Shown: positions 19,132-22,193, counted from the first letter of the stretch. The stretch is DNA of 27,928 nucleotides from a virus (IMGVR_UViG_638341082_000007:1-27928), one strand, 5' to 3'. Numbers and translations are program-made. The notes: generated by a model not told the origin, from the letters alone.

Positions 19132-19301
19132 CGTGACTTTTCCTTTTAGTGGGTGAGCCTGCGCCCGGGGGTGACCAGCCCACAGAGAAAGTCACACTGA
19201 CCATCCCGTAAGCTCACCCCTGAAAGGCTCTGTGGTTTTTTGATGTGCGCCGGGCGTGGCGCGGATATAAAAAAGGCCACGCAAATGCGCAGCCTGGTGA
19301 T

Positions 19302-19865
19302 TCAGAGATTTTCGAACGATTCCTTTTTACGACTCCAGCCTTCTATCTTCGGCAGAGATGCTTTGCCAAATCTCACATCATTCATCGACATTAAAATACT
19401 GTCTTTGATGAACTCGCATACCTCGTTAATTTTTGCGTCCGTATCTACGTGCGAAAATGTTCTGACCTGATAGCCATCAACTGAAATCGTTAAGTTATCG
19501 CCATCAAGCAACAGAATCTGTATGCCAACCTTCACGCTTGCAGACTGACGTGGGTTATCATCAACGACAGTCCACAAATTAAATGCAACACCATCCTGAA
19601 GCTCTACTCGCAAATCCTCAGGTTTTGTATTGTGCCCATTCCACAAAATAGAAACATACGGACGTTCTTTACCGTTAATATCGCGCCACTGTGAAGCTGG
19701 CAATTCCAGTGAATCTTCATAAACACTGACCAGCCTTTTGGCTGTATCCCGCAACCGCTGAATGTATTCCTGCTCAGCTTTCAGAATTTCGGCCCGTTTT
19801 GCCCTGATATCCGCATAAGTGACCACTGTATCAATCCTCTTATGAACAAATAAACAAGCCATCAT
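19302..19865 (-). CDS. Hypothetical cargo protein with N-terminal hydrophobic anchor (about 187 aa)
   Basis: ORF 19302..19973, but its first 17 codons lie inside the tRNA-Arg gene; first ATG downstream of the tRNA is at 19863-19865 (MMACLFVHKRID...); occupies the position of stx in Stx phages. Family not recognised. Confidence 0.5.
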   Translation of the reverse strand: MMACLFVHKRIDTVVTYADIRAKRAEILKAEQEYIQRLRDTAKRLVSVYEDSLELPASQWRDINGKERPYVSILWNGHNTKPEDLRVELQDGVAFNLWTVVDDNPRQSASVKVGIQILLLDGDNLTISVDGYQVRTFSHVDTDAKINEVCEFIKDSILMSMNDVRFGKASLPKIEGWSRKKESFENL

Positions 19866-19924
19866 AATAACCGCCAGAGTATATATGAAAAAGGCCCGCC
19901 GTAGCGAGCCTGGAAAAATAAGCG

Positions 19925-20001
19925 TGGCGCGTTGTACTGGATTCGAACCAGTGACCGATTGCTTAGAAGGCAATTGCTCTGTCCGGCTGAGCTAACAACG
20001 C
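19925..20001 (-). tRNA. argO: tRNA-Arg (anticodon UCU), argO-like
   Basis: Manual fold of the reverse complement: 7-bp acceptor stem (gcgttgt/acaacgc), D and T arms (T-loop ttcgaat), anticodon loop cttctaa, encoded CCA. Confidence 0.85.
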
Positions 20002-20014
20002 ATAATGCAGATAA

Positions 20015-20091
20015 TGGATTGCCATCGGGGACCCGAGCCCCACACAGCCAGTTTCGAAAGCTGGCACTCTCTGTCGATGAGCTAATGGCGG
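20015..20091 (-). tRNA. argN: tRNA-Arg-like (anticodon UCG), argN-like, atypical
   Basis: Manual fold: anticodon loop tttcgaa, T-arm tgggg/ccccg with non-canonical T-loop ctcgggt, encoded CCA; but two C-A mismatches at the acceptor stem end and a C-A at the base of the anticodon stem. Confidence 0.55.
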
Positions 20092-20098
20092 TATGTGA

Positions 20099-20174
20099 TG
20101 GTGGCCCTTGCTGGATTTGAACCAGCGACCTGGCGATTATGAGTCGCTCGCTCTCACCACTGAGCTAAAGGGCC
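20099..20174 (-). tRNA. ileZ: tRNA-Ile/Met (anticodon CAU), ileZ-like
   Basis: Manual fold: acceptor ggccctt/aagggcc, D-arm gctc/gagc, anticodon loop ctcataa, T-loop ttcaaat, encoded CCA. Confidence 0.85.
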
Positions 20175-20206
20175 TGTCCATCGCGTCATTGCGGTGGCAC
20201 GGTGCA

Positions 20207-20234
20207 ATAATACGAATATCTCCGTCATTTTCAA
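20207..20234 (-). promoter_or_regulatory. Candidate sigma70 promoter for the tRNA cluster
   Basis: Minus strand TTGAAA, 16-nt spacer, TATTAT, followed by a GC-rich discriminator, about 30 nt upstream of the tRNA-Ile 5' end. Confidence 0.3.
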
Positions 20235-20356
20235 TAAACACAACGTCAATAATCGTAAATATACGTACATGTTTTTATTTTTCCGCATTTTCCGGGAATA
20301 ATATTGCACACTGTTAACAATTATTTTTTACTTCACTCACAGTCTGATTAAATTTC

Positions 20357-20800
20357 TCATCTTCCTGCTTCGCAGCAACCGCCCGACGCCCAGCAAAAGT
20401 GCGCAACCAAATTACCTTGACGACCGCTGGTGATAATTATCTGACGCAACATGTCTGCCGATGTTTCACAGGGGTGTTTGCCGGGGAAATACTGCACGGG
20501 CTTGTGCGGCCAGCCCCCCCTCCCCCGTATAAGGAACGGCTGCTGATACGGAAAAATAACGTCGCAAAGATTTATAATCATTCTAACGCCAATTATCCAT
20601 CCAACAAGAAAAATTACGATAGCTGTAACAGCGTAAAACAGGCTTCTTGCCACATCATCTACGCCAGCACCAACAACCCACCATGGAAATCCATAATAAA
20701 AAGCACCTCCCCAACCATAGAAATAAGCACCTCCCCATCCCAGACATCCCATATACGCAACAAACAATGAAGAATTTCTGAGTAATTCTTTATCAACCAT
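20357..20800 (-). CDS. Gly/Trp/Tyr-rich small membrane protein (possibly shorter than the ORF)
   Basis: ORF 20357..20824; ATG at 20798-20800 (MVDKELLRNSSLFVAYMGCLGWGGAYFYGWGGAFYYGFPWWVVGAGVDD... then a TM helix); the N-terminal two thirds are AT-rich and repeat-encoded, and the ORF runs into a GC-rich segment of different composition. Confidence 0.35.
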   Translation of the reverse strand: MVDKELLRNSSLFVAYMGCLGWGGAYFYGWGGAFYYGFPWWVVGAGVDDVARSLFYAVTAIVIFLVGWIIGVRMIINLCDVIFPYQQPFLIRGRGGWPHKPVQYFPGKHPCETSADMLRQIIITSGRQGNLVAHFCWASGGCCEAGR

Positions 20801-21326
20801 AGTTTCTCGCAACAATCTGAACACATTGATATAGTTGAAATAACAATACTAATTCAATAGAGTCAAGCGCTGCTTTCATCTTTTGTTAAACAACATTAGA
20901 TTATTTACAAATCCAATGCGCAATTCTTTTTTAAGCTCACAAAAAAACCGCCCGGGAGGGCGGTAAAAACTCAAATAGCACTCAACGTATTAAATAGAAT
21001 TCGAGATATCGGATGTCTTTTGTAGACATATTAATCAACGAATAAATACGTTACAGCTTTCGTCTATTTATATGTATACCTGACAGTCCTGCTCTTCGGC
21101 TCATCTCACATTTTTATACAACATAAGGATGGCGCATCATCTGTCTCTCCAGGATAATTCCCGAAACTCTCTTCCAGCAATGCGCCATCCTTATATTGAA
21201 AAAAACCGCGCTGAAACTATAACTGGTCTCTGTTATAGTTCGAGGGAGCAATGAGATATCTGAAACCATCCCCGCGAAAAAAAAACGCCAGCGCTGTAAG
21301 GTATATATACCTTGATAAGTGCCCTG

Positions 21327-21398
21327 AGCGGATAGCGGGAATCGAACCCACATCATCAGTCTGGGAAACTGAGGTAATAACCATTATACAATATCCGC
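21327..21398 (-). tRNA. tRNA-like element, Gly(CCC)-like, AT-rich D-arm, no encoded CCA
   Basis: Manual fold: acceptor gcggata/tatccgc, T-arm gtggg-ttcgatt-cccgc, anticodon stem tcagt/actga with loop ttcccag; only a 3-bp D-stem. The plus-strand ORF 21251..21487 is its translation artefact. Confidence 0.45.
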
Positions 21399-21587
21399 AT
21401 ACAATACTAATTATGGCATATAATGTTAACTATCGGTATCCAGAGCTAAATCTAACCAAACAAAGACAGCCCGCCAACCACAAATAACCTTACTGTTATT
21501 TTTTTATCATCCAGCAACATCTCTTGCCTTGTAACATATAAATCACCAAGAAACTTAGCAATATATTTACAAAACAGGAAGGCATTT

Positions 21588-21977
21588 GTGAAATTGTTTT
21601 TTCATATGTTATTTTTTTGTTTGGTTATCTTTAATTCACCAGATAGCTATTCACAGATAAGTGTCGATGCATCAATCTCCGATATAAAGATTTGCTTTGC
21701 CAATAAAATAAAAAAAGATGGATACACAATGGACTTAAATGACATAAAAATTCCAGTTAACGCCAAAGAATTCGCAACATATAAAATGTCAAAATTTACT
21801 GGTTCATTATGGATAGAATCATCGACAGAAGGAAGGCCAACAAGGGAAGCGGGTATAATCCATGCTAACAGTCAAAGTTATAATATTCTATATGATGCCT
21901 TGCTGTTATGTAGCAAAGAATTATCTAATCAGTCTTATCTGTTACCAACTCCTGGATATGCAGCCACATCAGCGTGA
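21588..21977 (+). CDS. Small secreted protein (129 aa) with Sec-type signal peptide and two Cys; AT-rich cargo gene
   Basis: GTG start at 21588 preceded by AGGAAGG 7 nt upstream; hydrophobic N-terminus LFFHMLFFCLVIF; Cys at precursor positions 36 and 108; markedly AT-rich and on the strand opposite to the prophage late operon. Confidence 0.55.
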   Translation: MKLFFHMLFFCLVIFNSPDSYSQISVDASISDIKICFANKIKKDGYTMDLNDIKIPVNAKEFATYKMSKFTGSLWIESSTEGRPTREAGIIHANSQSYNILYDALLLCSKELSNQSYLLPTPGYAATSA

Positions 21978-22075
21978 CCAGTAAACGGCTAACTCCTTTC
22001 CATTACAACGCCTGCAAATCTTGCAAACTGGCTTACCATGAAGTCGGGGCTTTTTCATCCAGAACTGTACCTTTA
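21940..22075 (-). pseudogene. Diverged internal fragment of a second Q antiterminator gene
   Basis: About 135 bp at roughly 75-80% identity to 22310-22440 inside the intact Q gene (for example cagcgtgaccagtaaacggcta... against cagcgtggtcggtaaacggcta...); overlaps the 3' end of the plus-strand secreted-protein gene. Confidence 0.45.
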
Positions 22076-22133
22076 ATTACCGCAGGTCGAAGCCCCCCTT
22101 TAACGGCAGGCACACACCCCCATTGTTGAGATA

Positions 22134-22162
22134 ACTCTATCCATGTTTTGTGAAAAATGCAA
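22134..22162 (-). promoter_or_regulatory. Candidate late promoter (PR'-like) immediately downstream of Q
   Basis: Minus strand TTGCAT (22157-22162), 17-nt spacer, TAGAGT (22134-22139), 32 to 60 nt past the Q stop; position matches lambdoid late promoters. Confidence 0.3.
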
Positions 22163-22193
22163 GCATCATGTCGACATCTTCCGCGAAAATCAT

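Follow-up and report, generated by a model that had tools for sequence, protein, structure and literature searches.

A probable moron and tRNA slot between gene Q and the lysis cassette of a lambdoid Escherichia coli prophage, with two accessory genes of uncharacterised families

The position after the antiterminator gene Q is where phages place host-altering genes, of which Shiga toxin (Stx) is the best known. Lambda bor and the lc/nmpC porin genes are morons on the opposite strand that are expressed in the lysogen. Morons downstream of the late promoter pR′ are established (PMC4104026). A moron was defined for HK97 and HK022 as a unit of promoter, gene and terminator (Juhala et al., 2000, as cited in PMC4104026), and co-expression of stx with the lysis genes through Q-dependent read-through is described in PMC4104026 and PMC8065619. 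Here we describe the corresponding interval, of about 3 kb, in a viral DNA of 27 928 nucleotides (IMGVR_UViG_638341082_000007:1-27928; this whole stretch is called the window). An original prediction had described 19300–22193 as a heterogeneous mosaic between Q and the lysis genes, at the position taken by stx in Stx phages. We consider it likely that the interval is a moron and tRNA slot between a Q-dependent late promoter and the lysis cassette, that it arose as a recombination patchwork and that its genes are expressed as proposed below. The interval as a whole is a further member of a known slot class, moron insertion after pR′ being textbook knowledge. As judged from sequence, it carries two intact accessory genes of uncharacterised families, both under purifying selection: a gene for a small predicted exported protein, here termed sec129, and a gene for a protein of ~174 residues. 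Loci used for comparison are denoted by L numbers.

The host prophage is lambdoid, with an SfV-type Q and a Mu-like tail, and is sited next to yccA in a set of E. coli strains that includes O166:H15. A lambdoid early and late-control region is joined to a Mu/SfV-like contractile tail. A prophage matching the window at 99.9% identity adjoins yccA in 18 of 5426 complete E. coli genomes; the carriers are human isolates, several of them Japanese and some typed O166:H15. All phage genes of the slot region are on the minus strand, as is every feature given below unless stated otherwise. In phage orientation the order is DUF968 (22960–24006), Q (22194–22946), the interval, a first holin gene (18077–18469; PF16931), which starts the lysis cassette and limits the slot downstream, a second holin gene (17812–18141) and an M15 endolysin gene (17432–17815). 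Lying between Q and the holin and endolysin genes on the same strand, the interval has the position of a pR′-proximal slot.

Q encodes 250 residues and is of the type found in SfV and Stx2c phages (PF03589, E = 1e-51; phrog_127); its product shares 90% amino-acid identity with SfV Q. It is followed on its 3′ side by a conserved leader of 92 bp (22102–22193). Q and leader together (23000–22102) share ~90% identity with Q and the next 93 bp of SfV and of the Stx2k phage, and the homology ends at 22102. Because of this conservation, pR′ and the Q-loading site are placed in 22193–22102. A promoter scan of this leader gave no site above threshold.

The tRNA genes tie the interval more closely to Stx phages, in many of which, among those matching the window, tRNA clusters occupy the slot position. 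Over 294 bp the cluster of the window is 90% identical to ileZ–argN–argO of the Stx2k phage. It begins with an ileZ-like tRNA-Ile2(CAT) (20099–20174; ARAGORN; Rfam, 72.5 bits), which is 100% identical to the copy in L021 and has the region's best sigma-70-like match in front of it (20234–20207, ten of 12 positions), and ends with an argO-like tRNA-Arg(TCT) (19925–20001; ARAGORN; Rfam, 70.1 bits). The argN gene between them (tRNA-Arg TCG, 20018–20091) has decayed: it scored 23.7 bits in Rfam against a gathering score of 29, was not called by ARAGORN and differs from the Stx2k phage copy in the acceptor stem and D-arm. The Ile-Arg-Arg cluster that had been predicted is therefore real in its outer members and dead in the middle one. 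In the Stx2k phage the homology continues for a few bases beyond the corresponding argO terminator, and stx2A starts 92 bp after argO. In the window, a cassette with the 174-residue gene starts at the argO terminator, no more than ~10 bp from the end of this homology just upstream of stx2A, and so occupies the stx junction. Both marks of an stx slot, homology to ileZ–argN–argO and cargo that starts after the argO terminator, were thus found, with argN decayed, and the stx-equivalent position of the original prediction was borne out.

This cassette (~586 bp) is bounded by imperfect direct repeats of 31 bp, each of which is a terminator hairpin. The first copy is the argO terminator (19883–19913, hairpin 19911–19892) and the second lies at 19267–19297 (hairpin 19295–19274). 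Nine of the 18 sister genomes have the cassette, and the other nine (e.g. L002) keep one copy of the repeat with a clean junction, as seen by alignment to related prophages, a check that had been suggested. The cassette thus shows what is expected of a moron, namely presence or absence between near-identical phages and discrete ends. Ranked by identity values rather than by a tree, the closer and the less close genomes alike include some with and some without the cassette; its repeated loss or gain is hinted at.

The gene in the cassette (19302–19826) belongs to phrog_5091 (E = 2.8e-51). In RefSeq (WP_244578150.1) it starts at ATG 19865 and encodes 187 residues. The motif AAGAGGA lies six bases upstream of GTG 19826, the conserved part of phrog_5091 starts at T16 of the 187-residue open reading frame (ORF), many homologues open with M-V/I-T-Y and a homologue in phage CharmingMan (27% identity) aligns from the point of the GTG start (hhalign probability 99.4%). 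An N-terminal anchor on the 187-residue ORF was considered and rejected in favour of the GTG 19826 start, supported by the AAGAGGA motif and the homologue starts. Because this is the likely start, the 174-residue product is likely to be cytoplasmic, without N-terminal anchor or signal peptide, and the 'anchored protein' of the original prediction was probably an artefact of the chosen start codon. The AlphaFold (AF2) model is confident (predicted local distance difference test, pLDDT, 81.5) and shows an alpha/beta protein in which a sheet of seven to eight strands is accompanied by a long helix at the N-terminus and another helix at the C-terminus; a structure search with this model gave no informative structural neighbour. 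The ratio of nonsynonymous to synonymous substitution rates (dN/dS) is 0.13–0.25 between diverged copies, indicating purifying selection.

A promoter-like site lies upstream of the gene at 19891–19861; the number of such sites in the region is not above that in shuffled sequence. The same stretch holds CTCTGGCGGT at 19870–19879, in register with the −10 hexamer. This string corresponds to the lambda OR1/pR core; the window has a single occurrence where 0.03 would be expected, and L006 and L007 both keep a C/T variant of it.

The cassette is followed by a TerB-family gene resembling tciA (18706–19131; PF05099, 32.2 bits against a cut-off of 24.4; phrog_632, E = 5e-64), which has ~80% nucleotide identity to tciA of P1, and by a gene for a small DUF3927/TciB-like membrane protein (18557–18709; PF13064, E = 3.6e-13, 49.7 bits against 25; phrog_1470). 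The TerB-like gene had been predicted correctly but, like the DUF3927 gene, lies outside 19300–22193. The order 174-residue gene–TerB–DUF3927 recurs in L006 and L007, which have other Q and lysis types, and in CharmingMan; this recurrence suggests a functional link. The TerB gene of L006 has an internal stop. In a P2-like phage a phrog_5091 member without TerB stands immediately beside gpQ, the portal gene, past gpA; this is the region of 'moron position 1' in P2-like phages (PMC3573123). The TerB–DUF3927 pair was found in 346 of the 5426 genomes, with 171 of its 415 places on plasmid records, and is far commoner without the 174-residue gene (346 versus 25 genomes).

In L007 (E. coli strain 'numer 3', from a pigeon), whose prophage has the block tRNA-Ile/Arg–174-residue gene–TerB–DUF3927 in common with the window, genes annotated as an enterotoxin A family protein and a heat-labile enterotoxin IIA B chain were observed at 7498–8643. 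Their place is inside the lysis cassette, with the holins on one side and the M15 endolysin on the other.

The second intact gene, sec129 (21588–21977, plus strand; WP_000764920.1, labelled hypothetical protein in RefSeq), has a GTG start preceded by an AGGAAGG Shine–Dalgarno sequence and a G+C content of 0.316; AUA makes up 4.6% of its codons. Homologues end at about residue 113–116, and nucleotide homology to a copy of 66% identity ends at 21925, next to the edge of a Q remnant at 21926. The native part is therefore 21588–21926 (residues 1–113), and residues 114–129 are translated from the antisense strand of the remnant. Near-identical copies with differing tails (P0001 and P0002) indicate that the tail is unconstrained. 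The secreted-protein gene of the original prediction stands as an AT-rich, opposite-strand member of a real family, except for its last 16 codons.

Homologues of sec129 were drawn from IMG/VR and protein collections. A word-indexed search of 5.8 billion proteins returned near-identical copies only, an exhaustive HMMER scan gave 11 matches and a profile search gave 22 clusters, of which all those with a named source are from E. coli or Salmonella. Giant HMMER matches (2624, 1250 and 3294 residues) are Big_2, InlB-repeat or repetitive proteins and were treated as repeat or composition artefacts. The small members have 106–134 residues and share a signal-peptide-like N-terminus; their alignment has ten invariant columns, including C36, W75, G82 and C108, and the window copy retains every invariant residue. 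Given this N-terminus and the invariant columns with C36 and C108, the pattern fits an exported, disulphide-bonded protein of ~90 residues after processing. The dN/dS of sec129 is 0.30 against the 66% identical copy and 0.18 against a copy of ~52% identity, which argues for a real gene under purifying selection. The family was not found in Pfam, NCBIfam, PHROGs or PDB sequences, no PDB chain matched the profile at E below 0.9 and a profile scan of the GTDB species-representative genomes gave no confirmed relative. In their sources the relatives are named 'hypothetical protein', apart from one evidently wrong '50S ribosomal protein L1'.

The most informative result is the conserved antisense position of the sec129 family after Q, kept in seven sequence-diverged sets of loci. 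Opposite-strand copies follow Q in the window and in its IMG/VR twins L008–L011, and homologues occupy the same position in L021 and L022 (66% identity), in L012–L014 (~52%), in Salmonella L031 and L032 (30%) and in S. salamae L033 (27%), where the gene stands directly between Q and holin. The family directly adjoins Q in all of these sets except L012–L014, in which other genes intervene. Next to the family stands a PF03589 Q in some loci, but a Q of the unrelated PF06530 in others. In four sets tRNA genes stand back-to-back with the family: tRNA-Gly(CCC) in the window and in L021/L022, and tRNA-Arg(TCT) plus tRNA-Gly(TCC) in L012–L015 and L031/L032. Further members lie on the Salmonella chromosome between tusA/yedF and fliE. 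The lack of a constant protein partner near the family suggests that the protein probably acts alone.

Distant members were also observed in L023 and L034 (Salmonella plasmid-like or other mobile-element contigs), divergent and upstream of chaperone–usher (PapD/PapC) operons. Mobile-element genes are nearby in these fimbrial contexts, a relaxase in one and a transposase-like gene with ParE in the other.

The tRNA next to sec129 in the window is a sound tRNA-Gly(CCC) of phage type (21326–21398; ARAGORN; Rfam RF00005, 58.4 bits against a threshold of 29), more than the 'tRNA-like' element first proposed; the same tRNA adjoins the 66% identical homologue in L021 and L022. It is separated from sec129 by an AT-rich divergent intergenic region (21399–21587, not assigned to a strand; G+C 0.328), with a promoter-like TTAACA-17-TATTGT immediately 5′ of the tRNA. 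The anticodon is CCC in the window and in L021/L022 and TCC in L006 (4616–4690), L012 (1441–1515) and L031 (3476–3550); the copies of L006 and L012 are 84–88% identical, and the sequences suggest anticodon switching within one lineage of phage tRNA-Gly. From tRNA-Gly to the membrane-protein ORF downstream the window is 79% identical to L021. Within this stretch a long hairpin with a stem of ~21 bp (21116–21201; dG −48.7 kcal/mol, z −6.9 against shuffles) is kept in L021 and L022 with one compensatory change from C–G to U–A and one broken pair, and could be a small RNA (sRNA), a processing site or a recombination site. A second hairpin resembling an intrinsic terminator (20947–20964) is conserved in the same two loci. 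The three intact tRNAs of the slot read AUA, AGA/AGG and GGG. These are rare codons in E. coli.

Much of what lies between these elements is debris, in three parts: a Q fragment, a fusion pseudogene and the dead argN. The Q fragment follows the leader after a joint of 26 bp and is a frameshifted remnant of a second Q (21926–22075, 150 bp, codons ~166–216) that matches an internal stretch of Q from SfV, L004 and L021 at 75% nucleotide identity; in a tblastn search KKPRLHGKPVCKICRRCNG in this remnant matched Q residues 174–192. The fusion pseudogene (20357–20824; partial in RefSeq) joins a membrane protein to a DNA methyltransferase. Its first part (20824–20573) is the N-terminal 84 residues of a phage membrane protein of 237 residues, residues 9–84 matching phrog_17164, phrog_14371 and phrog_1521 with 82% identity to L021. 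The second part (20572–20357) is a C-terminal methyltransferase fragment, whose residues 105–153 match phrog_6952 and which matches MTase_II in PADLOC, the sole PADLOC match among the cargo. Relative to L021, ~1.9 kb is deleted; L006 and L007 were compared as well. The Q remnant of the original prediction was thus confirmed, while its Gly/aromatic-rich membrane protein proved to be this pseudogene.

At least four junctions can be placed in the interval: 22101–22076, 21925/21926, ~20573 and the repeated terminators at 19883–19913 and 19267–19297. Within the interval G+C varies between 0.29 and 0.58; it is 0.29–0.32 around 21400–21900 and 0.55–0.60 across the tRNA cluster and the methyltransferase fragment, compared with 0.51 for the whole window. 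The mosaic character that had been proposed is supported by this windowed profile, and all seven predicted elements exist, with the corrections given here. The description as cargo holds for the two intact accessory genes and fails for the debris. Contrary to the statement that no protein-coding gene matched a recognised family, TerB, DUF3927/TciB and the methyltransferase fragment could each be assigned to an established family (Pfam, PHROG, PADLOC). The exact gene set is rare: the AT-rich module of 1.1 kb (sec129 and tRNA-Gly(CCC)) is present in 18 and the 174-residue gene in 25 of the 5426 complete E. coli genomes. None of these genes has an assigned housekeeping phage function. An E-value scan of 17000–24500 with Rfam release 15, which covers prophage sRNAs only where curated, gave only tRNAs above threshold. 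A literature search on the RefSeq accessions of the cargo, phrog_5091, tciA and DUF3927 returned only unrelated papers, and one on O166 yielded no more than background.

Three observations were made outside the interval. A weak match to the Hfq-binding sRNA isrK lies at 24364–24445, upstream of DUF968 and Q (27.2 bits against a gathering score of 50, E = 0.009). The window contains nine N bases (17365, 17579, 17618, 17881, 18305, 18335, 18425, 27704 and 27852), which give X residues in the holin and endolysin translations. In strain AST240 (L003, NZ_AP043633.1), at 43419–46916, the tail-fibre end of the prophage is truncated (partial YmfQ) and is followed by an IS66-family element, so that the prophage in this strain may be defective.

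In the reading that we prefer, of a moron and tRNA slot, expression would proceed as follows. The tRNAs of the slot are probably transcribed from their own promoters. The sec129 protein would be made only in the lysogen, from its own AT-rich promoter, and would serve lysogenic conversion at the periplasm or envelope. Once the prophage is induced, RNA polymerase modified by Q would start in 22193–22102, read through every terminator and co-express the tRNAs, the 174-residue protein and TciA/TciB with the lysis genes, as for stx, and the converging late transcription would shut off sec129. Expression from the late promoter on induction, as predicted for the cargo in general, cannot apply to sec129 because the gene is antisense to the late operon. 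The 174-residue protein and TciA/TciB would most likely protect the host or the phage (superinfection exclusion, stress tolerance) rather than be toxic. For both intact proteins a role in protection, whether exclusion, defence or stress tolerance, is favoured on positional grounds only.

Several points weigh against this account. The location of pR′ is given by homology. The tR′ terminator annotated in SfV lies beyond the break in homology and is not retained in the window, so that constitutive transcription of the leader might run antisense into sec129 in the lysogen. The promoter-like sites of the region number nine, with 8.0 expected in shuffled sequence, and are matches at consensus level only. 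The window copy of sec129 lacks the native C-terminal end and has a GTG start, and could be impaired; its structure prediction has a pLDDT of 51.5 and does not establish a fold. PADLOC-DB v2 gave no match for sec129, the 174-residue protein, TerB or DUF3927. Finally, the 18 sister genomes carry the prophage at one locus with no less than 99% identity and look clonal; that the genes persist in them therefore says little about selection.

A sharper version of the functional part of this account would make the interval a defence or superinfection-exclusion island, in which the 174-residue protein and TciA/TciB act against phages, colicins or membrane stress and sec129 blocks at the envelope like Cor or Llp. 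We hold this to be possible, at well below even chances. Moron hotspots of P2-like phages are rich in defence systems, and P2 carries its exclusion gene old near moron position 1, which we count in favour of this view. CharmingMan keeps the trio of 174-residue gene, TerB and TciB at 27% identity, P1 annotates tciA and tciB as tellurite or colicin resistance by homology and the antisense, lysogen-type orientation of sec129 is conserved. A homologue of the 174-residue protein also lies in the P2-like region of moron position 1 (term as in PMC3573123), but without a TerB neighbour. Neither is the link within the trio general, since TerB–DUF3927 usually occurs without the 174-residue gene, and no intact protein matches PADLOC.

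A stronger claim for sec129 would be that, with its back-to-back tRNA, it forms a previously unrecognised conserved post-Q cassette in lambdoid prophages of Escherichia and Salmonella, whose uncatalogued product is a periplasmic lysogenic-conversion factor (for superinfection exclusion, protection of the envelope or colonisation of the host) that is off on induction and might contribute to the unexplained biology of diarrhoeagenic O166:H15 strains with astA only. In this full form the claim is unlikely. It is very unlikely that sec129 or the 174-residue protein plays the part of Stx here, as a novel virulence determinant (toxin or colonisation factor) of the diarrhoeagenic O166:H15 lineage that has astA only. 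The position is identical to that of stx, the AT-rich module is limited to 18 human isolates including strains typed O166:H15, outbreaks of astA-only E. coli lacking other known markers are reported from Japan (PMC12718105) and the predicted mature sec129 protein, secreted and with two cysteines, would have ~90 residues. The restricted distribution is, however, explained by clonality. No cargo protein matched a toxin family in Pfam or resembled toxins in sequence or fold; an AB5 or Shiga-like A-subunit enzymatic domain or a B-subunit family was not recognisable in the cargo (Pfam; sec129 profile against the PDB), there is no similarity to solved toxin chains and no partner A subunit. Homologues of sec129 are core-like chromosomal genes in Salmonella (tusA/yedF–fliE) and occur in many prophages, not tied to one pathotype; the 174-residue protein is probably without a signal peptide, and half of the sister strains do not have its gene. 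About as improbable is that, the tRNAs apart, the interval is DNA in decay, without function, in a defective prophage: the three pieces of debris, the replaced C-terminus and GTG start of sec129, the IS66 element interrupting the tail-fibre region in the reference genome and the internal stop in TerB of L006 would suit it, but the low dN/dS values of both genes, the retention of all invariant residues of sec129, the intact reading frames in all close copies examined and the conservation of sec129 position and orientation across 27–66% identity speak against it.

With no toxin and much recombination debris in the slot, a false lead is removed. What it offers instead are two candidates for an exclusion, defence or fitness factor. 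The sec129 family is missing from the protein-family libraries and yet keeps its antisense position after two unrelated kinds of Q, mostly in company with tRNA genes. The 174-residue gene differs naturally between sister outbreak isolates (nine with and nine without it), which provides ready-made isogenic comparisons. If neither gene has a phenotype, the region is ordinary mosaic prophage cargo.

The closest described systems differ in what they share with the window. P1 has a region dmt–tRNA–tciA–tciB–tciC–tRNA-Ile2 that is alike in the similarity of tciA noted above, with tciB/DUF3927 next to it, in a DNA methyltransferase upstream and in interleaved tRNAs that include Ile2(CAT). The window lacks tciC, and P1 lacks a phrog_5091 gene at the corresponding place. 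In L030 (P1, 67733–73151) the order of gene kinds resembles that of the slot: methyltransferase, tRNAs, plp/upl on the opposite strand, tciA, tciB and tRNA-Ile2. A shared mobile module is hinted at by this order. P1 Plp, an opposite-strand putative lipoprotein, was considered as a homologue of sec129 and rejected (hhalign probability 0.2%); the two are not homologous. The window protein matches phrog_5091 over its full length, as do the homologues from the P2-like phage and CharmingMan. As phrog_5091 is without an annotated function, belonging to it tells nothing of mechanism.

Stx phages (phiSTEC1575-Stx2k and Stx2c phages) are alike in a Q of the same type (~90% amino-acid identity), a tRNA cluster of 90% nucleotide identity and cargo right after the argO terminator with the lysis genes next. 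Unlike them, the window has no stx or toxin-like protein, its argN is dead, its Q and tRNAs are separated by an additional AT-rich antisense module and a Q fragment and its cargo consists of phrog_5091 and tciA/tciB-like genes. From the bor, lom and porin morons the locus differs in that sec129 and the 174-residue protein are unrelated to Bor, Lom and porins, and from known morons in general in that the sec129 family goes with divergent tRNA genes and with a post-Q position. We found no description of this family or of its fixed antisense, tRNA-linked position, which make a modest but testable lead. As in morons, the 174-residue gene is a terminator-bounded unit with a promoter-like site and a differing G+C content, present in some and absent from others of near-identical prophages, and sec129, with a product predicted to be directed to the envelope, is encoded against late transcription as are the opposite-strand morons bor and the porins.

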